A model generated the notes under the pieces. That model searched no databases. It saw only the letters and a program-made list of their open reading frames with translations, and was not told the origin of the DNA. A DNA stretch of 64,000 nucleotides from an uncultured bacterium (GTDB lineage: Bacteria; Cyanobacteriota; Vampirovibrionia; Gastranaerophilales; Gastranaerophilaceae), in contig CASGEL010000005.1 of NCBI GenBank assembly GCA_949300485.1, positions 88,453-152,452 on the forward strand, in the 5' to 3' direction. Positions within the stretch are counted from its first letter, which is position 1; each line of letters begins with the position of its first letter. This document shows positions 7,289 through 61,369 of this stretch, piece after piece. The position numbers were made by a program, and so were the translations under genes.

Positions 7289-7332
7289 TTTTATTCTGAA
7301 TTTCTGTTAAAATCACAACAGAGGGGAGAATT

Positions 7333-17012: not shown

Positions 17013-18893
17013 TTATTGTTTAGTTTTTAGATAGTCAGCTAATGGTGTTTTAACTTCTCCGTTTAGTTTTTCGGAGGACTTTTGCAGGATATCTGATACA
17101 TATTGCATATCATCTGTCCAGATGAAGTTTTTTTCTACATAATCTTTAGCTGCTTTGTAATCTCCGTCTAGCTGAATTTTGATAATTTCTTTTAGCATTT
17201 TTTTGCAGGTTGGAATAACTTTATATGTATGTATATATATTTTTCCGTTATTTAGGATTTCATAAACTCCGTTATCTTTCAGGTATTTACACTGCATAAC
17301 TTGTCTTACCCTATGGGCGACAGACATATCAGGCTTGGCTGATAAAAAATTCTGCATTACAAAAGTAGTCAGAATTCCTTTTCTTTCTTCGTCTGTATAC
17401 ATTCCAAGTTCTGTCAGTTTATCAATAAATGATATTGCCGCAACATCAGCTTTATTTTCTTCAAGAATGTTTCGGTATTCTCCTAATTTTGCTTCATTTT
17501 TATGGGGGCCGAGTGTATGTGCATTTTCATGACCTACTGTAAAATGGTGGCTGGCCTCTTTTGTAATATATTTACTTTGTTCAGGGGTAAGTAATTTTTT
17601 GTAGTTTTCCAATATAAGAGCTTTATTTTCTCTCATTTGTCTGTGGTAAACATTACGTCTGCCGCCGCCAATTGAAAAAGACAGTTTATCCGGGTTTGGA
17701 AGATTTTCTGCAATTGTAATTTTGCCACGATATTCTCCTACTGCACCTGCTACATCTACAAGGTCAACATCAACCATTGTTTGTTTATTATTATTTGTTA
17801 TAATTTGTTCGTATTCATTATTGTATGGCATAAGTTTTGCCAATTCCGGAAGATATTCTTTTGATTTTAGCAAATATTCTGTGCCCTGTTTATTTATAAT
17901 TCCTACTCTCCCACCTAAAAAATCTTTTGAAACAGGGGTGATTCTGTGTTCGTTTAATGCATTTATTAATTTTTTATTTTTAAAAATTGTTTGAGTCATT
18001 TTATCTTCGTAATTTTCTCTGGTAATAGTAAATTCAAGCGGAGTGTCCTGTAATGTTGCCCATTTTTTATCGGCATAAGCATCAAGCATTGGATCTGCTG
18101 TTTTTAGTGCCGCAGCCTGTAATACTAAATAGTCATTAAAATCTTCATTTGTTGAGGTTAAAGATGCTTTTATTAATTCATCTGCAGCTTTTGTGAATTC
18201 TTTTTTAAATCTGTCAGCATAATCTATGCCTTTTAATTCATTTCCGTTTCGAATAACAACCGTTCTTTGGCTGAGAATTTTTTTTATTTCTTCGATTTTC
18301 CCTTCTTCAAGCATTTTGAATAGTATATTATGAAATTCTTCAGTAGATAAATCTCGAGGATATACCCCTCTGCCCGGAGATTGCTGCAATCCTTTGGCAA
18401 GAGATATTTCTTCCATTTTATTGTCTTTTGAAAAAATTCCTTTTTGACCATTAAAAAGTCGCATCGCAGCTTTTGCATCCGGATTGCCTTTGAGAATTTC
18501 TTTATTTAGATAATTTCGGAAAGGTATATTGTTTTCATCATCCAGCTGCAATTCTGCTTCTCCGATATAATATGCAGCTTTTACAAGGTGTTTTAGCGCC
18601 TGTTTATCTCCGGGTTTTAGATTTATGTATTCTTCAGAGTCGGGTGTTAATAGTGTTATTGTAGCGATTTTGTTTGAATTGCTTCTCTGTTTTAATTCGT
18701 CTGAAGATAATCCTAATTCATAATGTTTTCCTTTAAAAGAAATTGCATTTAATGCAGATAAGTTATTTAGTTGGTTGAGGATTACTGTATTATTATTTTT
18801 TGTAATATTTTGATTTTTGTATTGAAATTTATTAGGAATACTGTACTTATGATTATTTTGAATATAGCTTTGATTAATCTTTGATATTTGCAT
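17013..18893 (-). CDS. M49 (DPP III)-like zinc hydrolase, paralog 2, with a 55-aa N-terminal module
   Basis: GHENAHTLGP and ILEENKADVAAI. Collinear with paralog 1 from aa 58 onward. Extra N-terminus runs from MQISKINQSYIQNNHKYSIPNKFQYKNQ to AISFKG. Confidence 0.6.
   Translation of the reverse strand: MQISKINQSYIQNNHKYSIPNKFQYKNQNITKNNNTVILNQLNNLSALNAISFKGKHYELGLSSDELKQRSNSNKIATITLLTPDSEEYINLKPGDKQALKHLVKAAYYIGEAELQLDDENNIPFRNYLNKEILKGNPDAKAAMRLFNGQKGIFSKDNKMEEISLAKGLQQSPGRGVYPRDLSTEEFHNILFKMLEEGKIEEIKKILSQRTVVIRNGNELKGIDYADRFKKEFTKAADELIKASLTSTNEDFNDYLVLQAAALKTADPMLDAYADKKWATLQDTPLEFTITRENYEDKMTQTIFKNKKLINALNEHRITPVSKDFLGGRVGIINKQGTEYLLKSKEYLPELAKLMPYNNEYEQIITNNNKQTMVDVDLVDVAGAVGEYRGKITIAENLPNPDKLSFSIGGGRRNVYHRQMRENKALILENYKKLLTPEQSKYITKEASHHFTVGHENAHTLGPHKNEAKLGEYRNILEENKADVAAISFIDKLTELGMYTDEERKGILTTFVMQNFLSAKPDMSVAHRVRQVMQCKYLKDNGVYEILNNGKIYIHTYKVIPTCKKMLKEIIKIQLDGDYKAAKDYVEKNFIWTDDMQYVSDILQKSSEKLNGEVKTPLADYLKTKQ
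18002..18110 (-). repeat. High-identity core segment shared with 16185-16293
   Basis: See the partner segment. Synonymous sites are also conserved, unlike the rest of the two genes. Confidence 0.8.
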
Positions 18894-37890: not shown

Positions 37891-40800
37891 TTGAATTTGT
37901 TAATTGACGGCAGCATAACCTCAAATAAAACAGAATTTTTGATTGAAAAATATTCTGAGCTTATAAACAATGGTGTTAAGACTTCTGAAATTTTGGTTAT
38001 AGTACAAAATTCTACTTTAAAAAATTCTTTTATAGATGAAGTTTTTAAGAAAATTGAAGTATCTTGTATTGAAAAATTGCAGGTCTATTCGTTCTACTCT
38101 CTTGTTTATAACGCAGTTTCGGATAATTGGGCTTTTTTAGAAGATAGAAATATTTTTGATAATCCTGTTATTTTACCTAATTTGGCCGGTTTAGAGGTTT
38201 CTCAGTTTATATTAAAAGATATCCTAAATGAAGTTAAATTCAGAGGATATAATTCGAGAATGTCATTATTACATCAAATTTTCAGAAGATATTCTCTGAT
38301 AGTTCAGAATAACCTTACTCAAAGTGACATAAATAAAAGGGCAGAAATTTTAAAGGAAGGATTTTCTGAGGATGCGAGTCTCGTAATTAAGAAGTTCTTG
38401 AAAAAAACGCTTGAATTAAGAGATTTTGACTATTTACGTCAGTGTCTAATGTTCAATTTTATATATAAAAATACTGATTATTTTAAAAATATTAAGTATT
38501 TACTTGTTGATGATGCTGATGAATGCACTCCTATTTGTATCGATTTTATTGAGTATTTATCAAAACAGCTAAAAGATGTTTATATTGCAGTAGATCCTTT
38601 AGGTTCAAGCAGGTGCGGTTATTTAAGTGCTGATAAAAATAATTTCGAAAAGCTAAAGAGTATATTTAAAAATTCTCAGATTATAAAACTTGAGGATTCG
38701 AGTTCGGTTGATGCTTTAAATCTTTATAAAAATTCCTGTTATGATGAAAATAATATCTTAAATATGTTTGAGTATGACTCTTATTCAAAACGTTCAAATA
38801 TGGCTGATGCAGCATTGGATAAAGTAATTAACCTTTTAAAAAACAAGGTGCTTCCTTGTGAAATTGCTGTTATATCTCCTGTTGTAGATGATATGCTGAA
38901 ATTTACACTGAGAGAAAATTTAAAAGCAAACGTCAACTTACTATATTTATCAGGGAGTGAAAAACTTATTCAAAACAGGCTTGTACAAGCTGCCATAACT
39001 GTTTTGAAATTAAATACCGAATTAAAAAATTCATTATCCGAGTTTGATATCAGAGTTATTTTGTCAGAATTTTTGCAAATCCCATTGAAATACTGTGCGG
39101 AGATTCTTTCAGAATTTAATACTTCTAAAGAACTTATTCCTTATGAATTTAAGGATGAAACTTATACAGAAAAATACTGCAAATTTTTAACGCTTGTTGA
39201 AAGATTAGCTGTTTCTGAAGAAAAGTTGTCTGAGCAAATTATTTTAATATATAAGGAACTATCTTCTTTGGGAGTAGTAAAATCTTCTGAGTTAAATAAA
39301 TTTAATTTCTTTGTAAAAGAAATTGTTGATTTTGAAAATATATTCGGACAAAATTTTAATCGCAGGAAATCCGAAATTATTTTGCAGATAGAAAATTCTA
39401 TTATTGCTGAAAATCCTTATTCAGTATTAGAAATTAAAAAAAATGATCTTGTTGTTTCAACTCCGCAAAAGATAATAGATAATCATATTAAAACAAAATA
39501 TCAAATTTGGCTTGATATATCAAGCTCAGAATGGATAAAATCTGATACGGGACCTTTATATAATGCTTGGGTTTTCCAAAAAGATTGGGATAAACCTGAT
39601 TATACTATTGAAGATAATATAAATTTATCAAAAGATAAAACCGCCAGAGTTTTAAGGAAACTTACCTTGTGTGCTTCAGATAAGATTTATTGTTATTCAA
39701 GTTTGTTTGATTCTAACGGTATTGAAAATTACGGCGGTATTGAACCTTATATTATTGTGCATTCTCAGGATGAAAAAAATAAAGAGGATGATAAGCCGCA
39801 ATTTAAAATTGTACCTCGTCCGGATCAAAAACCGGTTTTAGATTATAAAAACGGTTATATGGGAATTTCTGCAGTGCCTGGTGCTGGTAAAACAACTATA
39901 TTGCTTGCTTTAATTATCAATTTACTTGAAAGGGGAATAAATCCTGAAAATATTTTTGTTTTAACTTATATGGATTCAGCTGCAAGAAATTTTAGAGAAA
40001 GAATTAAAAACGTTCGCAAAAATTCTTCTAAACTTCCGAATATAAGTACAATCCATGGACTTGCATTACGAATATTGAAAGAAAACGGAAATTACGAGAA
40101 ACTGGGCTTATCTTCTGATTTTGAAATTTGTGATGATTCCCAAAGGGGCAGAATTTTGCGTGAAATTTCTTCTAAATTGAAAATAGAATCTAAAACTGCT
40201 GAAGAATTTGACAGAGCAGTTTCTGTTTTTAAAATTGGCGGAGGCAGTTTTGAGTCTTCAATTTCTGATATTAAATTGAAGAAGTTTAAAGCCTTTTATG
40301 ATGCGTATACAGATAACTTAAAAGAGTACAATCTAATTGACTATGATGATATGCTGACAGGCTCTGTAAAAATCTTGAAGGAAAATCCTGATATTTTGGC
40401 TCATTATCAAAATATTTGTGAGTATATTATCGAAGATGAGGCTCAAGATTCTTCTTCTGTTCAGCAGGAATTGATTTCTCTACTATCAGGAAAGCATAAA
40501 AATATTATAAGATGCGGAGATGTTAACCAATCAATCACAGCAACATTTTCAAATGCTGATGTTGATGGGTTTAGAAATTTCATTACGGAAAATAATAATG
40601 TTTCAATGAATTGTTCTCAGCGATGTACAAAAGATGTTTGGACGTTAGCAAATAAGTTGGTGGAAAAGGCTTCTTTAAATTCCGAGAGCAAGAATTCCTT
40701 TTTTAAAATGTATATGCAGCCTGTTGAGGGTAAAAATCCGCAAAGCATAAATGCTGTTACTCCGATGATTTTTGAGTCAGTTATTGATGAAAAAAATTAT

Positions 40801-41772
40801 GTTTTAAAATCAATAACAGAAATCCTATCAAAGCATCCTGATTATACTGTTGGTGTATTATTGAGAAATAATTTTCAGGTTGCTTCCTGGCAGAATTTGA
40901 TTGAAAACAGTGGCTTAAAAGTTATTACAAGAAATCAGTGTCTTGAACAGAAGTCTATTTTTAGGGTTATATTTGCGGTATTAAAAATGGTTCTATCTCC
41001 TTTTGATAATGAAGTTATAGCCTCCAATTACGAAATACTTGCAGATTCGGGATTTTATAAACGGGGGTTGGATAATGAAATAAGAAAATATGAAAATCCG
41101 TTTATTCAGATTAATGCTGATTATATTGATAATTCTGTTTTAGAACAATTTTATTGGGATTTGAACTATTGGATTTCACTTTGCTATCTTCCGCCGAATG
41201 AGCTGGCTGTTAAAATAGGTATGGGATTTTTTAAGAATGATATTGAAAAATCAAATATACATCTGATTTCAACTCTTATAAAACGAATTTGCATAAGGAA
41301 TAATTCTTTAGAATATGCAGTTTCACGTCTTGCGGAATTATCTAAAAAACCAAACTTAAGCGGATTTAAGTTTTTTTCTGAGGAAGATGAAGATGATAAA
41401 TCTTATTTGGCAGGTAAAGTGCAGATTATGACAATGCACAAATCAAAAGGGGATGAGTTTGATGTTGTGTTTATTCCTGAATTAACCGAAAGAAACCTGC
41501 CGCTCACTATAAATTCTATCAGTCTGAAGTCTTCTGAGTTTATAGAATCAGTAAAAAAACTTAATCCTGATTATAAACCTAAATCAGAATATGAACTTAA
41601 GCAGGAAATTCTATCAGAGAATTTGCGGCTTTTGTATGTTGCTATAACAAGAGCAAAGCAGAAATTATATATAACAGTCAGTAAAAAATCAAAAAATCGT
41701 TTTAATAAAGAACAAAAGCAGGGGATAAATGTTATATTTGAACAGTTGTTGGGGGTAGTTGAAAATGTTTAG
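37891..41772 (+). CDS. Fused AddB-like (degenerate P-loop) plus UvrD/AddA-like SF1 helicase, no nuclease domain
   Basis: N-half: GSITSNKT instead of a Walker A, and LLVDDADE. C-half: AVPGAGKTT, YIIEDEAQDSS, VQIMTMHKSKGDEFDVVFIPEL, RLLYVAITRAKQKLYI. Confidence 0.75.
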   Translation: MNLLIDGSITSNKTEFLIEKYSELINNGVKTSEILVIVQNSTLKNSFIDEVFKKIEVSCIEKLQVYSFYSLVYNAVSDNWAFLEDRNIFDNPVILPNLAGLEVSQFILKDILNEVKFRGYNSRMSLLHQIFRRYSLIVQNNLTQSDINKRAEILKEGFSEDASLVIKKFLKKTLELRDFDYLRQCLMFNFIYKNTDYFKNIKYLLVDDADECTPICIDFIEYLSKQLKDVYIAVDPLGSSRCGYLSADKNNFEKLKSIFKNSQIIKLEDSSSVDALNLYKNSCYDENNILNMFEYDSYSKRSNMADAALDKVINLLKNKVLPCEIAVISPVVDDMLKFTLRENLKANVNLLYLSGSEKLIQNRLVQAAITVLKLNTELKNSLSEFDIRVILSEFLQIPLKYCAEILSEFNTSKELIPYEFKDETYTEKYCKFLTLVERLAVSEEKLSEQIILIYKELSSLGVVKSSELNKFNFFVKEIVDFENIFGQNFNRRKSEIILQIENSIIAENPYSVLEIKKNDLVVSTPQKIIDNHIKTKYQIWLDISSSEWIKSDTGPLYNAWVFQKDWDKPDYTIEDNINLSKDKTARVLRKLTLCASDKIYCYSSLFDSNGIENYGGIEPYIIVHSQDEKNKEDDKPQFKIVPRPDQKPVLDYKNGYMGISAVPGAGKTTILLALIINLLERGINPENIFVLTYMDSAARNFRERIKNVRKNSSKLPNISTIHGLALRILKENGNYEKLGLSSDFEICDDSQRGRILREISSKLKIESKTAEEFDRAVSVFKIGGGSFESSISDIKLKKFKAFYDAYTDNLKEYNLIDYDDMLTGSVKILKENPDILAHYQNICEYIIEDEAQDSSSVQQELISLLSGKHKNIIRCGDVNQSITATFSNADVDGFRNFITENNNVSMNCSQRCTKDVWTLANKLVEKASLNSESKNSFFKMYMQPVEGKNPQSINAVTPMIFESVIDEKNYVLKSITEILSKHPDYTVGVLLRNNFQVASWQNLIENSGLKVITRNQCLEQKSIFRVIFAVLKMVLSPFDNEVIASNYEILADSGFYKRGLDNEIRKYENPFIQINADYIDNSVLEQFYWDLNYWISLCYLPPNELAVKIGMGFFKNDIEKSNIHLISTLIKRICIRNNSLEYAVSRLAELSKKPNLSGFKFFSEEDEDDKSYLAGKVQIMTMHKSKGDEFDVVFIPELTERNLPLTINSISLKSSEFIESVKKLNPDYKPKSEYELKQEILSENLRLLYVAITRAKQKLYITVSKKSKNRFNKEQKQGINVIFEQLLGVVENV

Positions 41773-42415
41773 TATTTATTCGCCTAATATGTTAAAAACT
41801 TACGAACAGTGTCCGAGAAAGTTTTTTTACAGATATATTTCAAATCTCAATGTTCCTGTTTCATCACTGCCTTTTGAGAAGGGTAAAAAAATACATGCTC
41901 TTGCAAACTACTTTTTAAAAGGGGTAAATATTTCCCGAATAGAAACTGCTTTGGCTCCTGCTGAAGCTGAAATTTGGCATACCCTGCTTGATAATCCGTT
42001 TTTTCAAAAAGATTGTCTTCAGTCAGAATATCAACTGTCTTGTAAAATTGGTGAATTTTGGATAGGCGGAAGGCTTGATGCTGTAGTTCATGATTATGAA
42101 CAGTATTATATTTTGGATTATAAAACTGGTTCTGTTCCTAAAAATCCCGAGTATGATTATCAAACAATGATTTATTTATTGAGTATGGATAAATTATTGA
42201 ACGGTAAGTATGAGTCGCTTTCTTTTGTTTATATAAATCTTAAAGAAAAAAATAATTATGTAATTGAATTTAATGATAAATTAAGACTTGATTATCAGGA
42301 ACGAATTATAAATATCTGCGACAAAATAAATACAGATACGATATATCAGGGCATAAGTTCTAATTGTAAATCGTGTGAATTTGTAAATATCTGCGATTCT
42401 TCCTGTGTTATTTAG
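41759..42415 (+). CDS. PD-(D/E)XK nuclease with Cas4/AddB-type Fe-S cysteines
   Basis: C18 (EQCPRKFFYRY), GGRLDAV...ILDYKTG (D...D-x-K), YQTMIY, and C-terminal CKSCEFVNIC (CX2CX5C). Overlaps the helicase stop by 14 nt. Confidence 0.75.
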   Translation: MKMFSIYSPNMLKTYEQCPRKFFYRYISNLNVPVSSLPFEKGKKIHALANYFLKGVNISRIETALAPAEAEIWHTLLDNPFFQKDCLQSEYQLSCKIGEFWIGGRLDAVVHDYEQYYILDYKTGSVPKNPEYDYQTMIYLLSMDKLLNGKYESLSFVYINLKEKNNYVIEFNDKLRLDYQERIINICDKINTDTIYQGISSNCKSCEFVNICDSSCVI

Positions 42416-51883: not shown

Positions 51884-53213
51884 AATTTTTAAATTTTCCC
51901 AAAATAAGTTAAATTATTTATATGAAAATAGTTTGTTTTTACAAAATATTGACTGGTTTATCCTGCCATTTATTTTGTTGACCTTTATAGCATCAACAGT
52001 AATGAATTCGGATGCTATCGGATTCTTTGCATTGATAGTAATGTTTTTAACGGTTGTTAAGATGCTTACAAAACCAGGTGAATTGATTAGTTTGAGGCAT
52101 TTTGAAGTCTGGATTGTTGCATATTTTATGATTGTTGTTATAAGTTTATTCGGTTCAACTTTATTTACCCTTAGTTTAAAAGGCTTTTTCAAGACATTTG
52201 TATATGTTGGTTTTTATTTTTCTGTTGCTCAGTATTTAAAAAACAATAAGGATAAAATAGTTTGGCTTTTGGCAGTCATTGGCTTATGTGTGGCAGGTGA
52301 ATCCGTAGTCGGATTTTTGCAAAGCTTTTTACATTTAGATGCGATTTCAACCTGGCAGGATACTTCTCATTTAAATCCTGAAGATGTCCTATCCAGAGTA
52401 TACGGAACCTTGAAACCTCTTAACCCAAATCTTTTCGGAGGTTATTTGGTTTGCGGTTTTCCTGTAATTTTAGGATCTGTATTTTATTTTGTTAATAAGA
52501 AGTATTTTAAATGTGCAATTGCAGCATTATTATTTACTCTTTGGGGGATATATACAATATTCCAAACCGGTTGCAGGGGTGCGTATTTGGCTTTGATGTT
52601 AATTTTTGGCTGTACATTTTTACTTTCTGCAAAATTTTTCTGGAAAACTTATAAAAAATTATATATTTCACTTATAGCTGCGGTATTTGCTTTGTTTATA
52701 GGTGCATTAACTTTTGTTAGTTCTTTAAGGCACAGGTTTTTATCTATTTTTGCTATGAGGAACGATTCTTCCAATTCGTTCAGATTTAATGTGTATCATT
52801 CTTCTATTGAAATGTTTAAGGATAATTGGCTGTTAGGAATTGGTGTTGGTAATAAAAATTTCAGAGAAATATATGGTTTGTATATGAAAACTGGTTTTGA
52901 TGCATTGAGTGCTTATAATATTTATCTTGAAACAGCTGTTGAAAGTGGTATTTTTGCATTAATTGCATTTTTAGGTTTTTTAATTACCGTATCTATTGAT
53001 GCTGTTAGATATATTATGCACTCAAATAACAAAGATTATATAATCTTTGTCGCAATATCAATAATTTCGGTTTGGGCTGTAATGTTTCATGGTTTGGTAG
53101 ATACAATTTATTTCAGACCGCAGCTTCAATTTATGTTTTGGACATTTATTGCAATAATAGCAACAGTGCTAACAGAAAATAATTCTAGCAATAAAAACCA
53201 GGTCGATGAGTAG
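51870..53213 (+). CDS. O-antigen ligase (Wzy_C) family polytopic membrane protein
   Basis: About 10 TM segments. QTGCRGAYLALMLIFG segment and a large loop typical of the WaaL/O-antigen polymerase family. Confidence 0.65.
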   Translation: MMFNRIFKFSQNKLNYLYENSLFLQNIDWFILPFILLTFIASTVMNSDAIGFFALIVMFLTVVKMLTKPGELISLRHFEVWIVAYFMIVVISLFGSTLFTLSLKGFFKTFVYVGFYFSVAQYLKNNKDKIVWLLAVIGLCVAGESVVGFLQSFLHLDAISTWQDTSHLNPEDVLSRVYGTLKPLNPNLFGGYLVCGFPVILGSVFYFVNKKYFKCAIAALLFTLWGIYTIFQTGCRGAYLALMLIFGCTFLLSAKFFWKTYKKLYISLIAAVFALFIGALTFVSSLRHRFLSIFAMRNDSSNSFRFNVYHSSIEMFKDNWLLGIGVGNKNFREIYGLYMKTGFDALSAYNIYLETAVESGIFALIAFLGFLITVSIDAVRYIMHSNNKDYIIFVAISIISVWAVMFHGLVDTIYFRPQLQFMFWTFIAIIATVLTENNSSNKNQVDE

Positions 53214-53634
53214 TAGTTGATGATATGGATATGCTACCTCCAAATGGCATATAAGGCATCATTCCGAAGCCTCCAAAACCCATACCCATACTGCCCCAGA
53301 AACCCATTGGTGGAGGACAGAACATATAGCTTGGGCAATTAAAGAACATCCAAGGAGAGCAGGCTCCCATTAATCCCAGAGTCCCAACTGTATTAGATAC
53401 AGGATTTCCGTATCCTGCATACATATTTATTGTGTTACCTACGGGGTTTCCGAATTTTTGCATTTCATATGCAACTTCGTTTCTGGCCATTCCGTTCATA
53501 AGGTTACCGATTAAGTTTCCGCCAGCATATGCACCTGAAACCCCCATACTTTTTTGTTGCAAAAAGGTTACGGCTGAAGCCAGTCCGCAATTTATATTGC
53601 TTAAAACTCTCATGTTCTCGGCGTAACCCATCAT
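53185..53634 (-). CDS. Gly/Met/Pro/Phe-rich low-complexity hypothetical protein
   Basis: AAGGAGA RBS. C-terminal part PPPMGFWGSMGMGFGGFGMMPYMPFGG. 3' end overlaps the convergent ligase gene by 29 nt. Confidence 0.5.
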   Translation of the reverse strand: MMGYAENMRVLSNINCGLASAVTFLQQKSMGVSGAYAGGNLIGNLMNGMARNEVAYEMQKFGNPVGNTINMYAGYGNPVSNTVGTLGLMGACSPWMFFNCPSYMFCPPPMGFWGSMGMGFGGFGMMPYMPFGGSISISSTTTHRPGFYC

Positions 53635-53836
53635 GTCTCCTTGTGTTAGTAATATTATTTATATAAAGTTTTTTTTGTGTAAAAAATTGACATAAATTTT
53701 ATATATTATTAAGATATATTAAGTATATATTTTTTATATTAGCAATTAAGACTATAATTTTTTATACATTACGGCGATTATTTTAAATTAAACTATCGGT
53801 ACAATTCATATATAAAGACTTAGTGGAGTAAATTTT

Positions 53837-54145
53837 ATGTTTATTGGAAATAGTTGTAATGATTGTAGCAGATATAATCGCTTGGAAATGAAAAATATTG
53901 ACCAAAATATTTTACCATGGCTTGAAGATATTATTGAAGAAAATAACAGCCGTATAGAACGAAAAGAATGGAAAAGTAAGTATAACAGCTATGTTGTATA
54001 TGATTATGAACCTTTCTGTACTGAAGGTTTTGAAATCAATTTGGTGATAACATCCAAGGAGATTTCCTATCTGAATTTTATTAAATATCTTTATGATGAA
54101 AAGGTTAGTACAATTGAATATTTAAATAATTGTGTTGCCATATGA
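53837..54145 (+). CDS. Hypothetical protein
   Basis: 102-aa ORF with a GGAG RBS. No motif recognised. Confidence 0.5.
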   Translation: MFIGNSCNDCSRYNRLEMKNIDQNILPWLEDIIEENNSRIERKEWKSKYNSYVVYDYEPFCTEGFEINLVITSKEISYLNFIKYLYDEKVSTIEYLNNCVAI

Positions 54146-54154
54146 TAGCAAAAA

Positions 54155-54180
54155 AGAGGAAGTGAAATTTCACTTCCTCT
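54155..54180. terminator. Hairpin between convergent genes (U-run on the minus-strand transcript)
   Basis: agaggaagtgaaa / tttcacttcctct perfect palindrome. A-run on the left flank. Confidence 0.7.
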
Positions 54181-54219
54181 GCCTAAATTATAATTTAAAA
54201 TTTATATAAAACTTATTAA

Positions 54220-54495
54220 TTATTCTTCAGGTTGTTTTTGAAAACATTCTTTGCAGAATACTTCTTTTCCCGGAATTGGTTTAAAAGGTACTTGAGTTTG
54301 TGCGCCGCATTTAGAACATACAGCATCATACATTCTTCTTTTTTTTCTGTTGTTTTTTCTGCGGATAGTTCGGCATTCAGGGCATCTTTTAGGTTTGTTT
54401 ACTAATCCTTTTTCTGCATAGAATTCTTGTTCCCCTGCAGTGAAGACAAATTCTTTGCCACAGTCTTCACATACTAATTTTTCATCTTCGTACAT
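54220..54495 (-). CDS. CxxC-x17-CxxC zinc-ribbon domain protein
   Basis: Two units: CEDCGKEFVFTAGEQEFYAEKGLVNKPKRCPEC and CSKCGAQTQVPFKPIPGKEVFCKEC. AGGAGA RBS. Confidence 0.8.
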   Translation of the reverse strand: MYEDEKLVCEDCGKEFVFTAGEQEFYAEKGLVNKPKRCPECRTIRRKNNRKKRRMYDAVCSKCGAQTQVPFKPIPGKEVFCKECFQKQPEE

Positions 54496-54594
54496 TGTTT
54501 TTCTCCTGATTGTGTACTTTGGGTTTTAACAACCCGACGGTTGTATCCTTTAATTGTACACTATTTTTTAGAATTTGCAAGTATGGATATATTT

Positions 54595-56007
54595 TTATGA
54601 TTCGAAGCGTGAAGAGTGCCTTAAAACTTTTCTATTTTCAATTATGTGACCGTTTTTATCTATATATTGTTCTTTATGGTTATTATCGGCGTGCCCACAT
54701 TTTTTCAATTTTTTAGCCGTTTGTTTTATGCTTGATTGCTCTGCTTTTTCTTTTATTTCAGGGATTTTTTGTTCAAAATTATCTAAATCGATTTTTATTT
54801 TAGATGATCGTAATTCAAATTCCTTTTTAAGTACAAGAATATAGTCAGACAAGGTGGAGGCATCTTTTAACCTTCCGTATTTTGTCCATTTTTCAGCTAT
54901 ATAAATAAGTTTGTTAATTTGTTTTTGTATGTATTGCGGAATATTTGGATCTTGGGTAGTTATAAAATCATCAATCGGAGTGTCTGATTTAAGTTCATTC
55001 AGTCTTTTGGATGTCAGTATGCTTACTTTGTATCGGCTTAGATTTTCTGCTGTTTTGTCTCCATTTTGTCTTGCTTTTTCTTCAGCTCGAAAAGCTTTTT
55101 GCGGGTGAATGTGATCATCCGTTCCTACAGACGGTATAAGTAGCCTTAATCCTATTTCTTCAGAGTCTCTTGGAATTTTAACGATTTCGCCTTTTGCATT
55201 ATGAACAACTTTGTATGGCTGAGAGTATTTTACAATAAAAGCATGTGCAGAATCTGATGATTGCGGTAATTTGGCTGCAACATCAAGCATTTTTTGTTTT
55301 ATTTTATTGTTTGATATTTGAATACCCCTTAAAGCAATGATAAATTCCTTTCTTCCGAAACGATCTTCAGGCAGAGGGTCTGTAGTAAATATTTTGTTAT
55401 ATGAATTTTGGATAAGTTTTCTGATTTCCAGAAATTCTTTTTTAGGTAAAACTTTACTTATTTGGCTTATTTTATTTAAGACTTTACTTTGGTGATTTAT
55501 TAATGATTGTTCTGCATTTGGGTATTTTAACCGAATAAGTTCTTGAAGAGTTAAATCGGGATTTTTTTTAGATAAAGTTTCAAGTAAGGCAAATACTTCT
55601 TTTTCTATCGGAAACATATTATCACGATACTCTTTAAGATATTTTATTGCAATGGAACTCTTTTTGTTTAGAACTTTCAAATCTTTTAATAAGTTGATAT
55701 CTTCTGATGTGATTAGTTCTTTGTCAGAATACGCATCAGGGATACCTTCTCTTAAAAGTTTTTTAAAAAATAATTTTGTAAATTTTTGTTCAAAAGTATT
55801 GCTAATATTAGCAATACCGCCTAGAAAACTAACGTTTCTGTGCGGTATTTGACTATTTAAACTGGTTTTTTGTGTCGTTTTGGTAAATGTGTCATGATTT
55901 AAAGGCCTTAAATTATATATTGCACTTTGTTTTGTGTAATATCTGTTGCTATTGTTTATGTTATAATACTGATTTGTATTATATTGTTGAATTTTTGAAA
56001 TTAGCAT
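54595..56007 (-). CDS. Hypothetical protein with the recurrent N-terminal module and a Cas9-type HNH nuclease motif
   Basis: MLISKIQQYN...NVSFLGG (aa 1-64). GTDDHIHPQKAF...YKVSILTSKRLNELKSDTP (aa 295-343; compare DVDHIVPQSF...NKVLTRSDKNRGKSDNVP). Confidence 0.5.
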   Translation of the reverse strand: MLISKIQQYNTNQYYNINNSNRYYTKQSAIYNLRPLNHDTFTKTTQKTSLNSQIPHRNVSFLGGIANISNTFEQKFTKLFFKKLLREGIPDAYSDKELITSEDINLLKDLKVLNKKSSIAIKYLKEYRDNMFPIEKEVFALLETLSKKNPDLTLQELIRLKYPNAEQSLINHQSKVLNKISQISKVLPKKEFLEIRKLIQNSYNKIFTTDPLPEDRFGRKEFIIALRGIQISNNKIKQKMLDVAAKLPQSSDSAHAFIVKYSQPYKVVHNAKGEIVKIPRDSEEIGLRLLIPSVGTDDHIHPQKAFRAEEKARQNGDKTAENLSRYKVSILTSKRLNELKSDTPIDDFITTQDPNIPQYIQKQINKLIYIAEKWTKYGRLKDASTLSDYILVLKKEFELRSSKIKIDLDNFEQKIPEIKEKAEQSSIKQTAKKLKKCGHADNNHKEQYIDKNGHIIENRKVLRHSSRFES

Positions 56008-56064
56008 ATTGTTTTAATGTTTATGAATATTATTTTTGTTAGTTATTTAACAAAAATTTACTCA

Positions 56065-56706
56065 TTATATTGATTTTTCTAAATTTACCCCATGTACTCC
56101 AGGTGGTTGAATATATAAAGGTTTCAATTCTTGCCATTTTGTTGATGTTTGTTTTAATTTATCATAAGTCAATTTAGCAAGTATTTCTCCTAATTGATAT
56201 TCTCCTTGTTGGTATGATATTCCACCTAATTCTTTTTGTAGTTTGTCATCTGTTATTAAATAATAATTTTCTTTTGATAGCAAATTCTTAACATTTTCTA
56301 ATTTAACAGCCCCTTTAATTGTATTGTCAAGATATAGGTAAGCACTGTCTTTTCTGGCATCTAATGCTACTACTGTTTTTTGGTTTGTATTGTTAAGATG
56401 TGATAATATTTCAAGAGAGGAAATTCCTATTGCCTGAATATCTAGCTGCTGTGCAATCATTCTTGCTACAGTTGTGCAGGCTCTGATTCCAGTAAAACTT
56501 CCAGGACCTATGTTTGTTCCGATTGCATCTAACTCTTTGGGTGTTAAGTTATTTTCTTTAAGCATTTCTTTTATTGTTGAGATTAAAAATGCTGAATGAT
56601 ATTTATTATCTCTATTGGTTACTACCTTTGAAGATAAGATTTTGTTATCTTCAGCCAAAGTTACGTACATTTTATCTAAACATGTATCAAATACTAATAT
56701 TTTCAC
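56065..56706 (-). CDS. tsaB: tRNA t6A37 biosynthesis protein TsaB
   Basis: MKILVFDTC and GPGSFTGIRACTTVARMIAQ. Confidence 0.9.
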   Translation of the reverse strand: MKILVFDTCLDKMYVTLAEDNKILSSKVVTNRDNKYHSAFLISTIKEMLKENNLTPKELDAIGTNIGPGSFTGIRACTTVARMIAQQLDIQAIGISSLEILSHLNNTNQKTVVALDARKDSAYLYLDNTIKGAVKLENVKNLLSKENYYLITDDKLQKELGGISYQQGEYQLGEILAKLTYDKLKQTSTKWQELKPLYIQPPGVHGVNLEKSI

Positions 56707-57176
56707 TGTTCTAATCCTTTTACAATTTCAATACATTCTTTTCCAAAGCCTTCAAATGAATATTTCCTGTAATCATTATCTTCGTATGTAACGTTGATTT
56801 TTATATGATTAAAAGGAATTTCATTTTGTGAAAATTCGGCCCATTCTACAAAAGTTATCTGTCTGCCTTCTGAATATTCTCTCAACTCATCCGTAATTGT
56901 TTTAACTCCTTCATTTTCCAATCTGTATAAATCAAAATGGTAAACCGGAATTTTTGCGCTATGATATTCATTTAGTATAACAAAGCTTGGGCTTGTAACT
57001 TTTTCTGTTACCCCGATTGCTTCTGCTACAAGTTTTACAAAGGCAGTTTTTCCTGCGCCTATTTCGCCATATAGATTTATGAAGCAACCGCTATTTTCGA
57101 TAAGCTTTGCAAATTTATAGGCTAAATTTTTTGTATCATCTAAATTTTTACATATTACTTCGTATTTTTTATCCAT
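56703..57176 (-). CDS. tsaE: tRNA t6A37 biosynthesis ATPase TsaE
   Basis: LYGEIGAGKTAFVK, TSPSFVILNEY, HFDLYRL. Confidence 0.9.
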   Translation of the reverse strand: MDKKYEVICKNLDDTKNLAYKFAKLIENSGCFINLYGEIGAGKTAFVKLVAEAIGVTEKVTSPSFVILNEYHSAKIPVYHFDLYRLENEGVKTITDELREYSEGRQITFVEWAEFSQNEIPFNHIKINVTYEDNDYRKYSFEGFGKECIEIVKGLEQ

Positions 57177-58416
57177 TATGTATCACTACCTTATTTCTTC
57201 CTGTATTTTTTGCTTGATAGAGGGCTTTATCTGCTTTTTTTAGCAAATCTTCTCCATTGTCATTTTGTGTCATTTCATATATACCAAGGCTCAGAGTCAC
57301 TTTAATTTTTTTTGTGTCACTGTCCGGATTTACTTTTGATATATCGATTTCATTGTTTTCAATAAGTTTTCTAAGACGTTCTGCGACTCTTTGAGCCTCT
57401 TCTATTTTTGTAAATGGCAGTAATATAGAAAACTCTTCTCCGCCGTAACGGCCTGCAATATCATATTCACGAAGTTGTCCTCGAATTATTTTTGCTATTG
57501 TTTTTAAAACCAGGTCTCCAACAGCGTGTCCATAAGTATCATTTACACCTTTGAAAAAATCTATATCAGTCATAATCCCGCAAAGCGGTGAGTTCTGACG
57601 TTTTGCATTTGAAACTTCTTGTTTTAAACGATCTTCAAGTTGCCTTCTGTTATAAAAACCCGTTAAAGCATCCAAAGTTGCGTGTTTTAATATTTCAGCA
57701 TAAACATTTGCCCGGTGTATTGTTGTTGCAATTTGAACAGATAATTGAATTAAATAATCAGTGTCTTTTGGGGTAATTTCTTTATTGGTACTTTTTGCAA
57801 CAAGTACTCCAACTTCTCGCCCTTCACTTTTTAGAGGAAGTGCCAGAGTCTTTTTGTCAGGAGTGAATACCGGTGTTTCAATACGTGAAACTATATCTAA
57901 AATATTTGTATCATTGCAGGCTGATGGCCAAGCCAAGGTATTACCTTGAGTATTTTCGTCTTTTAGAAAGATGTAGATCAAGCAATCTGCGAAGAATTTG
58001 TCTAGCATTTCTCCAATGATCGGTATTACATAATTAAGCTCATATTGAGTTTCTATAATCTTAGCAATATTTTTCATTGTTTCATGAAAATTAATGTTTT
58101 TTTGCATTTTATCGCTTAAAATGAGATTTTGAATTTTTAAGGATATAAAAGGCGCTGTGTATTTTAAAAATTCATCTAAATCTTCTGTTTCATTTGAAAA
58201 ACTCAAATAACCTATATTTTTCTTATGTTTAAATATAGGATAGTTAAAATTATTAGAATCTATTTTATTTAAATTATCTTCGTCGTTTTCAGTGTAAATA
58301 GAAAAAGTTTTTATATTAAAATTTTTTTCAAAAAAAGTTCCCAAAGAGTTAATCAGCGATTTTTCACTGTAACTTTCATTAAGAACTTTTGAAAGCTTTT
58401 CTATTTTTTCTAACAA
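57169..58416 (-). CDS. GAF-like sensor diguanylate cyclase (GGDEF) with an intact I-site
   Basis: LTGFYNRR, DIDFFKGVNDTYGH, REYDIAGRYGGEEF (RxxD five residues before GGEEF). Confidence 0.9.
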   Translation of the reverse strand: MLEKIEKLSKVLNESYSEKSLINSLGTFFEKNFNIKTFSIYTENDEDNLNKIDSNNFNYPIFKHKKNIGYLSFSNETEDLDEFLKYTAPFISLKIQNLILSDKMQKNINFHETMKNIAKIIETQYELNYVIPIIGEMLDKFFADCLIYIFLKDENTQGNTLAWPSACNDTNILDIVSRIETPVFTPDKKTLALPLKSEGREVGVLVAKSTNKEITPKDTDYLIQLSVQIATTIHRANVYAEILKHATLDALTGFYNRRQLEDRLKQEVSNAKRQNSPLCGIMTDIDFFKGVNDTYGHAVGDLVLKTIAKIIRGQLREYDIAGRYGGEEFSILLPFTKIEEAQRVAERLRKLIENNEIDISKVNPDSDTKKIKVTLSLGIYEMTQNDNGEDLLKKADKALYQAKNTGRNKVVIHNG

Positions 58417-58418
58417 AT

Positions 58419-59168
58419 TTAAACCTCAACTTGTTCTGCAATTTCATCAGGGATATCGCAGTTTGCATAAACATTTTGCACGTCATCCAGTTCTTCCAAA
58501 CGTTCAATCAATCTCATTACAGAAGTTGCAGTTTTAAGATCAGTAACTTCTATTGTGTTTTGTGGAATTCTTGTTAATTCTGCGGTTGTACTTTTAAATC
58601 CTTCGGCTTCAAGTCCTTCTACAACGCTTTGGAAGTTTTCTACAGAAGTAATAACTTTATAGCATTCATCATCTTCTGTTACATCTTCGGCATCAAGGTT
58701 TATTGCGGCTTCAAATAATTTTTCAAAATCAACAGACTTATCAAATTCTATAGAACCTTTTTTGTCAAACATCCAGCTTACACAGTTTGTTTCACCAAGG
58801 TTTCCGTTGAATTTTGTGAAAATACTTCTTACATCTCCTGCTGTTCTGTTTCTGTTATCAGTCATTGCTTCTAATACAACGGCAACACCGCCTGCAGCAT
58901 AACCTTCATATGTTAATTCTTCGTAATTATCTGTAGCGCCGGCTCCTGAACCTTTTTCAATTGCTCTTTTAATATTGTCATTAGGAAGACCTGCAGCCTT
59001 AGCTTTTTCAATCGCTGTTCTGAGTCTGAAATTGCCGGCAGGATCAGGTCCGCCAAGTCTTGCTGCAACTATTAATTCTCTTGAATATTTTTGAAATACT
59101 ACGGCTTTTTGTGAATCTGTTTTTGCTTTTTTGTTTTTAATATTAGCCCACTTTGAATGTCCTGACAT
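58419..59168 (-). CDS. yebC: YebC/PmpR family DNA-binding transcriptional regulator
   Basis: MSGHSKWANIKNKK and the conserved YEGYAAGGVAV. Confidence 0.95.
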   Translation of the reverse strand: MSGHSKWANIKNKKAKTDSQKAVVFQKYSRELIVAARLGGPDPAGNFRLRTAIEKAKAAGLPNDNIKRAIEKGSGAGATDNYEELTYEGYAAGGVAVVLEAMTDNRNRTAGDVRSIFTKFNGNLGETNCVSWMFDKKGSIEFDKSVDFEKLFEAAINLDAEDVTEDDECYKVITSVENFQSVVEGLEAEGFKSTTAELTRIPQNTIEVTDLKTATSVMRLIERLEELDDVQNVYANCDIPDEIAEQVEV

Positions 59169-59253
59169 TTTTACCTCTTTATAATCTATAATACTTATAA
59201 TTTGATAATATCAAAAAGGTATTTCATTTTCAATGATTGAAATTTGTAAATTA

Positions 59254-59283
59254 AAAGACAGCCGGAATATTCTGACTGTCTTT
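59254..59283 (-). terminator. Hairpin downstream of the SLH protein gene
   Basis: aaagacag / ctgtcttt, an 8-bp stem with a 14-nt loop. Weak U-tract. Confidence 0.45.
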
Positions 59284-59314
59284 CAATGTTATTTATGGAA
59301 TTTTAAATTGATAT

Positions 59315-60460
59315 TTATTCAAAAATCCAACCATTAGTAAGGTCAACTTTTACAGGTTGTAAAAGTTTCAGATTAGCGGTGCCTTCAGCCTGTACTTCTA
59401 ATTTTTCACCTTTAAATGCCCATCTTACAAATTTCATCCACCAGTTTCTGTCTTTTTTAATTTCTGCAGTTCCAACAAATGGTGCGGTTTGATCATTTTC
59501 GGTTGTAATAAGTGCATTTTTAAGTACAAGTACACCGTTTCTTACAAAATATTTACCCGGTCTTACATCAAGAAGTTGTCCTTTTAATACAGCACCTTCT
59601 CTGACTAAAATAAATTTTTCTTTTGTAACATAGTTTTGAGGTACAGTTGCAGTATATAATGTTCCGCCTTCAGATGTTTGAGAGCTTACATAAGTTTTTA
59701 ATTTTACCGGAACTATGGTTCCTGCAGGTAAAGTACCTACGTTTCCTTGTACTGTTGCATTTTCAACTACAAATCCTTCGCCTGTTTTCTTCCTCATTGC
59801 TTCTGCTAATTTTGCATTCGGATTTAGTTTTGCCTGCTCCATCATTTTAAATAGTATTGCAGCTACTTCTGCTCTTGTTGCAGGTCTTGTTGCCTCTAGG
59901 GATGCTTTTTGAGCTGTTGGTGCAACTACTATCATTCCTAAGATTTCTGCTTTTCCTGCAGGAATTAAAAACCATTCAGGAATTTCGTTAGCATCAATAT
60001 ATTGTTTTGCAAGGACTTCTTGTGCTTTTTGCAGACTTATTGTTTCGGTTGTCAGCGCGTTAACAGCTACCGATAATGATTCTGCTCTTGATACAGAATC
60101 TTCAGGTCTGAAGGTGTCTCCTGATTTGTCATTTGATATCAGATCAAAATATACAGCTTTTTGAATATCTTCATAAGCCCAATAATTTTCATCTATGTCA
60201 GAAAAATTAACAGGTTGAGCCACTTTTGTGTGCTGTTGTCCTAAAGCTCGGATTGCCATTGCTGCGAACTCTGCTCTTGTAACATTAGCATCAGGTTTAA
60301 AAGTTCCGTCAGGATAACCTACAATAACTCCTTGTTCTGATAATAAATTGATTTGTGATGCAGCCCAATAATCATCATTTACATCAGGAAATGCCATAAC
60401 AGGTGATACTGCAAAGCATAGAATAGCAACAGCAAGAACTGTTTTTAAAAATTTCTTCAT
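59315..60460 (-). CDS. Secreted protein with three N-terminal SLH domains
   Basis: Signal peptide. FPDVNDDYWAASQINLLSEQGVIVGYPDGTFKPDANVTRAEFA, FSDIDENYWAYEDI...FRPEDSVSRAE, and a third degenerate SLH repeat. Confidence 0.85.
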   Translation of the reverse strand: MKKFLKTVLAVAILCFAVSPVMAFPDVNDDYWAASQINLLSEQGVIVGYPDGTFKPDANVTRAEFAAMAIRALGQQHTKVAQPVNFSDIDENYWAYEDIQKAVYFDLISNDKSGDTFRPEDSVSRAESLSVAVNALTTETISLQKAQEVLAKQYIDANEIPEWFLIPAGKAEILGMIVVAPTAQKASLEATRPATRAEVAAILFKMMEQAKLNPNAKLAEAMRKKTGEGFVVENATVQGNVGTLPAGTIVPVKLKTYVSSQTSEGGTLYTATVPQNYVTKEKFILVREGAVLKGQLLDVRPGKYFVRNGVLVLKNALITTENDQTAPFVGTAEIKKDRNWWMKFVRWAFKGEKLEVQAEGTANLKLLQPVKVDLTNGWIFE

Positions 60461-60649
60461 ATTCCCTCCTATTTAATATACACATTTAAATTTAGCATAG
60501 TTAATTTCTTTTTTATAGTCTTAAGCTTTTATATTGTTAATTTCTGTAACAAGAAAGATTAATATATAGAAATATACTGACAAAAAATATTTTTATGGTG
60601 TTTAATTATTACATCATTTAAAATGGTCTTTATAACTCTGGGGTTTAAT

Positions 60650-61369
60650 ATGATTATTAACAGTATTTCTTTAGGTCAGAATCATCCATATAGTTCAAAT
60701 CAAAAATTTGGAACTGCACCCTCTTTTACATCCGTTCATCCTGCGGTGTATTTCGTAAAAGGTACAGATGGTAAGTTTCATCAGGTTTCTTCTGCAGATA
60801 TTATTAAAACTCTTCAAAGGAAAATAGTCGGATGGTTAAACAAGCCGTATAATGATTCTGCGGCTATTAAAAAAGGCAAAAAGCCTAAGGTTTCTAAGTC
60901 TGAATCGCCTGAAGAGAAATCAATAAGGGATAGATTAGTACGATTTTTTTATAATAATGATCCTGATTATGCAAAAAGACCTTTTGTAAGATCTTTTTAT
61001 ACAAAAAATAATAACGGAAGATTGTATTCTTTTATATTGTCAGGACAGTCTTCTGAGTTAGTCGAGGCTGCGGCTAAACCGATAGGACAGGCTCGAGGTG
61101 TTATAAAAGCTAAAAAAGATAATATAACTAAAAATTTTGGAATAGATGAATATAGAGCAAAGAATTATGTGCCGAGGGAAGATGTCAGGGAGCTTGCAGA
61201 GGCGTCTAAAAACTATCATGAAGATGCAGTTAAAGTGATAAAAACTCTCTTATCTCAAAATAGACCTCGCGATATGAGGTTTGAAGCTTATTTTGTTCCT
61301 TATACGAAAGGTAAGGAAGTTAAATATCAGCTTGCGGATGCTTGTTTAAAAAGAGAAGTAAGATTATAA
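60650..61369 (+). CDS. Hypothetical basic protein with the recurrent N-terminal module
   Basis: Start set at the ATG after GGGG (M10 of the track ORF). MIINSISLGQNHPYSSNQKFGTAPSFTS. No family recognised. Confidence 0.55.
   Translation: MIINSISLGQNHPYSSNQKFGTAPSFTSVHPAVYFVKGTDGKFHQVSSADIIKTLQRKIVGWLNKPYNDSAAIKKGKKPKVSKSESPEEKSIRDRLVRFFYNNDPDYAKRPFVRSFYTKNNNGRLYSFILSGQSSELVEAAAKPIGQARGVIKAKKDNITKNFGIDEYRAKNYVPREDVRELAEASKNYHEDAVKVIKTLLSQNRPRDMRFEAYFVPYTKGKEVKYQLADACLKREVRL

Follow-up and report, generated by a model that had tools for sequence, protein, structure and literature searches.

What does a protein with a Cas9-like nuclease motif do in a genomic region that holds no CRISPR system? 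The question is raised by a 470-residue protein encoded in a 64,000-nucleotide stretch of DNA (hereafter the window; positions 88,453 to 152,452 of contig CASGEL010000005.1, assembly GCA_949300485.1) from an uncultured bacterium of the Gastranaerophilaceae. The original prediction, made from the sequence alone, had described the protein as an N-terminal module joined to a Cas9-type HNH nuclease motif, and suggested that it is a DNase-type effector. Here we find, by transitive homology, that the protein is a diverged member of the HNH (His-Me finger) domain group, and that its N-terminal 64 residues are, as judged from sequence comparison, a portable leader shared with unrelated enzymes. The reading we favour, at somewhat better than even odds (roughly 55%), is that of an active one-metal HNH nuclease, which diverged within a superfamily confined to Melainabacteria and is probably exported by means of this leader. 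The gene is as follows.

54595–56007, minus strand: complete gene for the 470-aa HNH-superfamily protein, stop codon included (open reading frame list and sequence).

The open reading frame (ORF) is intact and starts at the first ATG past the upstream stop codon. Its translation contains the motif on which the original prediction was founded, SVGTDDHIHPQKAFRAEEKARQNGDKTAENLSRYKVSILTSKRLNELKSDTPIDD and SVGTDDHIHPQKAFRAEEKARQNGDKTAENLSRYKVSILTSKRLNELKSDTP, with His299 encoded at nt 55111–55113 and Asn337 at nt 54997–54999.

Direct searches with this protein were uninformative. Scans against Pfam, NCBIfam and PADLOC returned nothing relevant, and no match was found by sequence search of the PDB with either the protein or its orthologue profile as query. 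There are 92 homologues of ~460–470 aa, none of which carries a functional name or a Pfam HNH domain. Distant relatives were collected by searching a profile of residues 248–378 against 1.84 billion representative proteins (E ≤ 1e-3), which yielded 156 sequences. Pfam HNH-type domains were matched in many of the 78 relatives scanned: HNH (PF01844) in 23/78, with a best E-value of 9e-9, HNH_5 (PF14279) in 14/78 and HNH_4 (PF13395) in 13/78. Several relatives exceed the curated PF01844 threshold, scoring up to 35.8 bits compared to the cut-off of 21.4, and the matched segments span the columns aligned with His299, Val328 and Asn337.

The close and distant sub-families are connected with high significance, as comparison of their profiles (A4 versus A2) with hhalign gave a probability of 99.9 and an E-value of 5e-34. 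The best PDB match of the distant-relative profile (A4) is the Cas9 HNH domain 8d2k (E 9.8e-6), and its further matches include ‘HNH nuclease domain-containing proteins’, the Geobacter HNH protein 4h9d, AnaCas9 (4ogc), isolated Cas9 HNH domains and an IscB. In an hhalign comparison with the HNH segment of SpCas9, which was verified against PDB Cas9 chains, His299 and Asn337 are in register with the catalytic His and the helix Asn; we take the SpCas9 counterparts of His299, Asn337 and Val328 to be His840, Asn863 and Asn854, respectively. Both His299 and Asn337 are invariant in the 35 orthologous sequences (A1) and in an alignment of 79 sequences that includes distant relatives (A3). In the orthologue alignment, Asp297, Ile300, Pro302, Lys340 and Asp346 are almost invariant and position 298 is Asp or Glu. 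The signature of the whole superfamily reads LPxSxxxxxAFIVKYS ... RSxxEIxxRLLxPSxxTxEHIxPxS..GG..N..N..L.C..CN..R.

Together, the Pfam matches of the relatives at the His299 and Asn337 columns and the matches to Cas9 and IscB structures argue for a genuine HNH domain of the Cas9/IscB flavour. The original HNH assignment therefore holds by way of the relatives, whose Pfam HNH matches fall on homologous columns, and not by a direct match of the protein to any HNH model. The label ‘Cas9-type’ is reasonable at the level of the domain, given the best PDB match of the relatives’ profile and the register with SpCas9. The family is a previously undescribed, highly diverged HNH-type branch without a match in current profile libraries, and a literature search on Melainabacteria combined with HNH or secretion signals found nothing on it.

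An AlphaFold2 model of the full-length protein was obtained with a mean predicted local distance difference test score (pLDDT) of 82 and a predicted template modelling score (pTM) of 0.72. Residues 67–440 are modelled confidently, with pLDDT < 50 for residues 1–66. Together with the alignments, the model divides the protein into the following elements, listed from the nuclease core outwards.

54988–55128, minus strand: HNH (beta-beta-alpha-metal) core, aa 294–340, from predicted secondary structure, conservation, Pfam HNH matches of relatives and the hhalign register.
55111–55116, minus strand: codons of Asp298-His299 (gat cac), predicted metal ligand and general base; from sequence, with position 298 Asp/Glu and His299 invariant.
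55024–55026, minus strand: codon of Val328, in the middle-Asn column of the H-N-N motif, where at least 90% of the 79 aligned sequences have Asn.
54997–54999, minus strand: codon of Asn337 (aat), predicted second metal ligand on the alpha-helix; invariant in the 79 sequences.
55222–55707, minus strand: all-helical domain, aa 101–262, separating the knuckle remnant from the nuclease core; AlphaFold2 helices with pLDDT > 90.
55222–55269, minus strand: superfamily signature LPQSSDSAHAFIVKYS, aa 247–262, at the C-terminal end of the helical domain; the pattern LPxSxxxxxAFIVKYS is kept in the 79 sequences.
55723–55743, minus strand: IPDAYSD, aa 89–95, aligned with the Cys-rich PCxYCG element of distant relatives.
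54688–54975, minus strand: C-terminal helical region, aa 345–440, with AlphaFold2 helices at 345–351, 356–376, 380–400 and 411–440.
54598–54687, minus strand: conserved basic C-terminal tail, aa 441–470 (A1 consensus ...ADNxHKExY...ENRKxQKHSSRF), with low pLDDT and specific to the orthologous group of this protein.

The predicted core consists of a strand (294–299) ending in Asp297-Asp298-His299, a helical hairpin insert (303–326), a second strand (329–333) and a helix (334–340) that carries Asn337. The strands and the helix have pLDDT > 90, and the hairpin insert ~81–88; these ~25 helical residues stand where relatives have a GG turn. The topology predicted for residues 295–345, for which the original prediction had called for a structural check, is thus the right one for a beta-beta-alpha fold, a weak agreement in view of the missing Foldseek match discussed below. 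In the profile search, the stretch right after the core also aligns with Cas9 8d2k. The rest of the protein is mostly helical in the model and matched no curated family or PDB sequence, as the original prediction had described it, and the helical domain at residues 101–262 has no structural match in PDB or BFVD. In the alignment of relatives A5, C64, C66 and C67 are invariant; in the target clade the cysteines are lost and Tyr93 is invariant. From this alignment we infer that IPDAYSD is the remnant of a first zinc knuckle.

The first 64 residues are rich in Asn, Gln and Tyr and end in NVSFLGG, as can be read directly from the translation. A similar N-terminus was found on other proteins encoded in the window, as listed below.

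55816–56007, minus strand: leader, aa 1–64, from MLISKI to NVSFLGG; predicted to be disordered (pLDDT < 50, aa 1–66) and Asn/Gln/Tyr-rich, with a pattern common to the superfamily.
55990–56007, minus strand: leader element 1, MLISKI (M-x-[IV]-x-x-[IV]), conserved among 97 leaders.
55816–55836, minus strand: leader element 2, NVSFLGG ([IV]-[SN]-F-x-G), at the leader end; among orthologues Phe61 is invariant and Gly63 is conserved in at least 90%.
17013–18893, minus strand: 626-aa HExxH protein (peptidase), with its leader, aa 1–55, at nt 18729–18893 (BLASTP against its paralogue).
15187–16914, minus strand: 575-aa leaderless HExxH paralogue, the tandem neighbour of the 626-aa protein (BLASTP).
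10471–10995, minus strand: 174-aa protein of unassigned family with the same leader (MSAIEKINQ ... DVSFTG), from a leader hidden Markov model (HMM); no Pfam match.

Nearly all members of the superfamily begin with M-[KRN]-[IV]-x-x-[IV]; a polar stretch of 20–90 residues, rich in Asn, leads from there to [IV]-[SN]-F-x-G. Among the 97 leaders compared, position 3 is Ile or Val in 80/97, position 6 is Ile, Val or Leu in 73/97, and the median location of the Phe motif is residue 48. Hydrophobic runs are short, the longest one per leader measuring 3 residues in the median and 7 at most, and a Sec, Tat or lipoprotein signal was ruled out by this lack of a hydrophobic core.

The tandem HExxH proteins, which have no Pfam match, illustrate the portability of the leader most directly. 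From residue 56 onwards the 626-aa protein aligns with its paralogue from residue 2 at 57% identity (BLASTP), and its leader, MQISKINQ...NAISFKG, stops exactly at ISFKG, so that the pair essentially differs by the leader alone. Orthologues of the peptidase in other genomes retain MKIxKI ... [IV][ST]FxG, and leader-bearing (~620–634 aa) and leaderless (~573–575 aa) forms both recur among many metagenomic relatives. With the leader HMM, built from the HNH family, 16/16 leader-bearing peptidase forms outscored the two leaderless controls reported, and the 174-aa protein was matched at E-values of 5.5e-5 and 6.4e-4. Weaker matches were to a 248-aa family (60623–61369, plus strand), a 168-aa family and a 326-aa protein of locus L044. 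The ‘targeting module’ of the original prediction thus gains support as a portable unit, which heads nearly the whole superfamily as well as a peptidase with an adjacent leaderless paralogue.

Some further leader-like N-termini were observed. The real start of the 248-aa protein is probably internal, at MIINSISLG...APSFTS. The L044 protein (5789–6769, plus strand), from a related Melainabacteria metagenome-assembled genome (MAG), has a Zeta_toxin kinase domain (3.9e-18) and begins with a leader-like MINLI...PAISFAGK (leader HMM E 0.024). In the window, a 162-aa dual-specificity phosphatase (14690–15178, plus strand) starts with MKVQNICFTG, its best Pfam match being ‘polymorphic toxin system DSP-PTPase’ (2.3e-8).

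The comparisons show homology, residue conservation, a conserved gene order, portability of the leader and its predicted disorder, whereas catalysis, substrate and export are inferred. By homology with Cas9, IscB and classical HNH domains, His299 would serve as the general base that activates water, Asp298 and Asn337 would hold one divalent metal ion, and the bond hydrolysed would be a phosphodiester, most likely in DNA. The occurrence of the leader on unrelated enzymes (the peptidase with its leaderless paralogue, a small protein and a zeta-toxin-domain protein) and the lack of a Sec-type core suggest a targeting or export signal, which would make the protein an exported nuclease. We speculate that the flagellar type III export apparatus could be the route, since its retention has been reported for non-motile Gastranaerophilales: some 75% of the genomes of this order lack full flagella and keep only flhB, fliI, flgG and similar genes, for which the authors postulate a role in secretion (bioRxiv 10.64898/2026.04.24.720558), and partial flagellar gene sets were likewise found by Soo et al. 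(2014). In a fuller version of this proposal, the 50–65-aa leader would be a Melainabacteria-specific export signal that serves an enzyme repertoire (the expanded superfamily of HNH nucleases, a zeta-toxin-like kinase, a metallopeptidase, small proteins and perhaps a phosphatase) by way of the flagellar type III apparatus kept by most non-motile Gastranaerophilales, and the 470-aa protein would be a core secreted Cas9-type HNH nuclease in a lineage of gut commensals; we regard this version as unlikely.

A locus from a rumen MAG (L098) has flagellar rod genes (FlgB-, FlgC- and two FlgF/G-like; 5732–8018, minus strand; Pfam) adjoining an HNH-superfamily gene (3818–5224, plus strand). Rod proteins were rejected as leader carriers, those of L098 being unmatched by the leader HMM.

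The surroundings of the gene bear on whether it is an effector or a housekeeping gene. Its immediate neighbours are the following.

56065–57176, minus strand: tsaE (56703–57176) and tsaB (56065–56706), directly upstream (Pfam); the adjacency is kept in ~30 close genomes and 21 deeper Melainabacteria loci.
54155–54495, minus strand: treble-clef zinc-finger (zf_Tbcl) gene (54220–54495), followed by a terminator-like hairpin (54155–54180) (Pfam and terminator scan).

Pfam scans verified the tsaB and zinc-finger neighbours named in the original prediction (tsaB matching the TsaD family at 8.6e-20, tsaE at 1.6e-31, zf_Tbcl at 4.9e-23). Upstream lie tsaB, tsaE and the genes of a GGDEF protein and YebC, and downstream the zf_Tbcl gene, all on the minus strand like the HNH gene. 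The intergenic flanks of the HNH gene are only 57 nt, towards tsaB, and 99 nt, the latter bearing a promoter-like site for the next gene. The hairpin after the zf_Tbcl gene is the sole terminator-like hairpin on the minus strand in the region scanned (53600–59400). Further downstream, a 149-aa Gly/Met-rich ORF without a Pfam match (53185–53634, minus strand; GMGFGGFGMMPYMPFGG) occupies the same position in ~30 genomes.

All 33 loci recovered with the target family (33/33) come from Gastranaerophilales/Melainabacteria MAGs, a few of which have evidently wrong taxon labels, and the gene order YebC-GGDEF-tsaE-tsaB-HNH-zf_Tbcl is kept on the same strand in ~30 genomes and 33 loci. No relative is encoded in the phage and plasmid collections searched with tblastn, and a mobile or defence-island origin is ruled out by the strict synteny. 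The gene is thus a vertically inherited core gene of the Gastranaerophilales, and not a mobile, polymorphic or defence-island gene.

Loci from deeper clades were fetched with seven closer sequences of the distant sub-family, which gave 70 further loci, almost all from Melainabacteria. HNH-superfamily paralogues in these loci also occur away from tsaB, often as tandem pairs or triplets. Downstream of the tsaB-linked HNH genes, 18 deeper loci have a very highly conserved 98-aa ORF (MTDTGASFNRPYKPFGMNVKVPEIGE; for example L050 5119–5415, plus strand), which has no Pfam match and no homologue in the window.

Several features of these relatives may be recorded here. Two tandem HNH genes follow tsaE-tsaB (for example 317 aa and 517 aa) in L050, L053, L058, L062, L064, L066, L074, L078, L080, L087 and L089; the first copy of such pairs often has only a very short leader, and L043 has three in a row. 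In the giant members P0101 (823 aa), P0109, P0117, P0119, P0132, P0134 (1351 aa) and P0192 (1365 aa), the HNH profile matches two or three separate stretches, and these proteins thus appear to hold multiple HNH modules per polypeptide. An AddB N-terminal domain (1.9e-53) occurs in one further member of alignment A3; our guess from its N-terminal sequence is that this is P0208. Contigs with family members but labelled Muribaculaceae, Anaerovoracaceae, Clostridium sp. CAG:768, Brachyspira, Acutalibacteraceae or Bacteroidaceae (L034, L035, L037, L039, L062, L064, L065, L015, L020) are probably mis-binned or mislabelled MAG contigs, while three Chitinispirillaceae loci (38–43% GC) might be genuine occurrences outside Melainabacteria.

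The effector reading stands as a hypothesis with some circumstantial support, to which the housekeeping-like conservation of the gene is a substantial counter-argument. The main rival, which we consider rather doubtful, is a cytoplasmic housekeeping nuclease for repair, recombination or RNA/tRNA processing, co-transcribed with tsaE-tsaB, whose N-terminus would be a regulatory or interaction tail. Strict synteny and single copy (one genome window and 33 syntenic loci), with 41–90% identity across the order, are more housekeeping-like than effector-like. The rival is further favoured by the YebC-GGDEF-tsaE-tsaB-HNH order on one strand in ~30 genomes, the 57-nt gap to tsaB with the only terminator-like hairpin past the next gene, the lack of an immunity-like partner, and a sequence that looks to be under strong purifying selection. 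In the 21 deeper loci, one or two canonical Cys-containing HNH-superfamily genes directly follow tsaE-tsaB, and this constant placement could mean a cytoplasmic function linked to these genes. However, the conserved block also includes the functionally unrelated YebC and GGDEF genes, so the adjacency of the HNH gene to tsaB may be plain synteny, and many paralogues are located away from tsaB. A nuclease-specific tail would, moreover, leave unexplained the leader on the peptidase, which exists in a leaderless form, and on other unrelated proteins. Against export weigh also that it is, for every member of the superfamily, a prediction, that the likeness of leaders across families is at motif level only (leader HMM E 0.01–40 for peptidase leaders), that the residue at +4 from the leader Phe is hydrophobic in only 43/97 leaders, and that a precursor already active in the cytoplasm, with no immunity protein to restrain it, would endanger the cell. 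The activity half of the favoured reading has its own difficulties. The middle Asn is replaced by Val328 in the target clade and its nearest relatives, and the zinc-binding cysteines are lost in the target clade (C-x-x-C-N of relatives becoming T-S-K-R-L-N, and PCxYCG becoming IPDAYSD), so that activity could be reduced or altered. None of the 35 orthologous sequences (the target and 34 orthologues) matched a Pfam HNH model when scanned individually, and Foldseek with the full AlphaFold2 model gave no match with E < 0.1 in PDB and BFVD. When residues 248–378 were modelled alone, the pLDDT was 69, the catalytic strands fell below 50 and the Foldseek matches were meaningless. A catalytically inactive HNH-like module, serving as a nucleic-acid-binding or structural scaffold after loss of the zinc ligands and the middle Asn, would account for these substitutions, for the loss of every Cys ligand of the relatives, for the large hairpin insertion and for the missing direct HNH match. 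We find it improbable, as the clade and the superfamily keep the general-base His, the acidic residue before it and the Asn of the helix (nearly) without exception. Furthermore, Cas9 HNH domains do not need zinc cysteines for activity, and the middle Asn has a structural role and does not bind the metal.

The ‘DNase-type effector’ of the original prediction was not demonstrated. The gene belongs to the core set, with strict synteny, and has no variable context, recognised trafficking domain or evident immunity gene. In its classical form, this idea would make the protein a polymorphic-toxin or bacteriocin-type DNase, with the zf_Tbcl gene or a small ORF at 53837–54145 as the immunity gene. Such a toxin would fit with the HNH nuclease domain being preceded by an N-terminal module, with the small conserved genes found downstream, and with other leader-bearing proteins that have toxin-type domains (Zeta_toxin, and the dual-specificity phosphatase with its ‘polymorphic toxin system’ Pfam match). 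Yet the protein scan revealed no known trafficking domain (such as PAAR, RHS, LXG or MIX), the locus is the same in ~30 genomes and not polymorphic, and no phage or plasmid association was found. The original prediction was right that no obvious immunity gene is adjacent, and no consistent immunity-like partner appears across the loci. In deeper clades the downstream neighbour is swapped for the different, very conserved 98-aa ORF, and zf_Tbcl, which is thus not retained there, was ruled out as the immunity gene; it is an established Pfam family that is probably widespread outside toxin loci, and not a locus-specific partner. A classical toxin is therefore highly improbable in our estimation. 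Descent from an RNA-guided nuclease of the Cas9/IscB kind, whether the protein is a working one or a remnant, would agree with the Cas9, IscB and other HNH domains found as best PDB matches of the superfamily profile, and RNA binding by the large helical domain is conceivable in principle. The non-CRISPR context described in the original prediction was upheld, however. No CRISPR-like array was found in the window by tandem-repeat and short direct-repeat scans, no RNA family, such as a tracrRNA, by an Rfam scan, and no RuvC or Cas9 domain in the protein with Pfam and NCBIfam; according to Pfam, the neighbours are tsaB, tsaE, GGDEF, YebC and zf_Tbcl, and not cas1 or cas2 or, within the window, any other cas gene. 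In the AlphaFold2 model all 470 residues are taken up by the leader, the helical domains and the HNH core, with no split RuvC around the HNH domain, and neither a REC lobe nor any other solved structure was matched by the helical domain. For want of RuvC, an array and room for a non-coding RNA in flanks of 57 and 99 nt, the latter with its promoter-like site, an RNA-guided system was ruled out and such an origin is disfavoured to the point of being scarcely credible. The active, probably exported nuclease is the reading that we carry forward.

Elsewhere in the window, a 1293-aa UvrD-type helicase with a ~640-aa N-terminal extension without a domain match (37891–41772, plus strand) is followed by an overlapping PD-(D/E)XK nuclease gene (41759–42415, plus strand), and the pair may be AddAB-like.

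The protein belongs to an uncharacterised, lineage-restricted HNH branch that current profile libraries miss entirely. Its build is unusual, with the zinc-knuckle remnant and the catalytic core ~200 helical residues apart and no structural match. Whatever its function, annotation of the family gains, which becomes HNH-type instead of ‘hypothetical’. The shared leader is the most interesting element of the finding, as it offers a testable handle on why flagellar export genes persist in gut Melainabacteria that have lost motility, and on what these bacteria secrete, if they secrete anything. If the leader is an export signal, uncultured gut relatives of cyanobacteria would carry a conserved set of secreted nucleases and hydrolases, which would bear on their ecology, for example on the use of extracellular DNA as food, on competition or on interaction with the host.

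Among known systems, the leader may be compared with the early substrates of flagellar type III export. In Salmonella, these have an N-terminal hydrophobic signal and a downstream F-x-x-x-hydrophobic motif, at least 19–30 residues apart, as in FlgD with 2-SIAV-5 and the gate-recognition motif 36-FLTLL-40 (PMC8983047). The 470-aa protein has a similar bipartite layout, with Leu2-Ile3...Ile6, a polar disordered spacer and F61-L-G-G-I65, and the spacing of its elements is well above the 19–30 residues that were reported (PMC8983047). In contrast, the core of its leader is [IV]-S-F-x-G and not F-x-x-x-hydrophobic, and the likeness is one of resemblance only, with the rod proteins of L098 unmatched by the leader HMM.

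For the nuclease domain, the Septu PtuB and GmrSD_C His-Me-finger defence nucleases are weakly matched by some distant relatives (PtuB E ~1e-3, GmrSD_C E 0.009). These matches span the generic core motif only, and the target has no PADLOC match, partner ATPase or defence-island context. As for classical HNH endonucleases, such as McrA and colicin-type DNases, the distant relatives bear the full EH-I-x-P ... GG ... N ... L-x-C-x-x-C-N of PF01844 and HNH_5 (PF14279) domains, for example Geobacter 4h9d. The target itself is below detection, without the CxxC pair and the GG turn, and has no known immunity, restriction-modification or terminase partner.

The HNH domains of Cas9 and IscB (HNH_4, PF13395) differ from the target in their setting, as the latter has no RuvC, guide RNA or CRISPR context and its HNH domain is part of a helical protein that starts with a leader and is unmatched elsewhere along its length. 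Within the domain, the target has Val at the middle-Asn position (SpCas9 Asn854) and a ~25-aa helical hairpin insert. Nevertheless, both share the register D-H-I-x-P-Q ... [IV]-L-T-x-x-x-x-N-x-x-K-x-D, and SpCas9, like the target clade, has no zinc cysteines.

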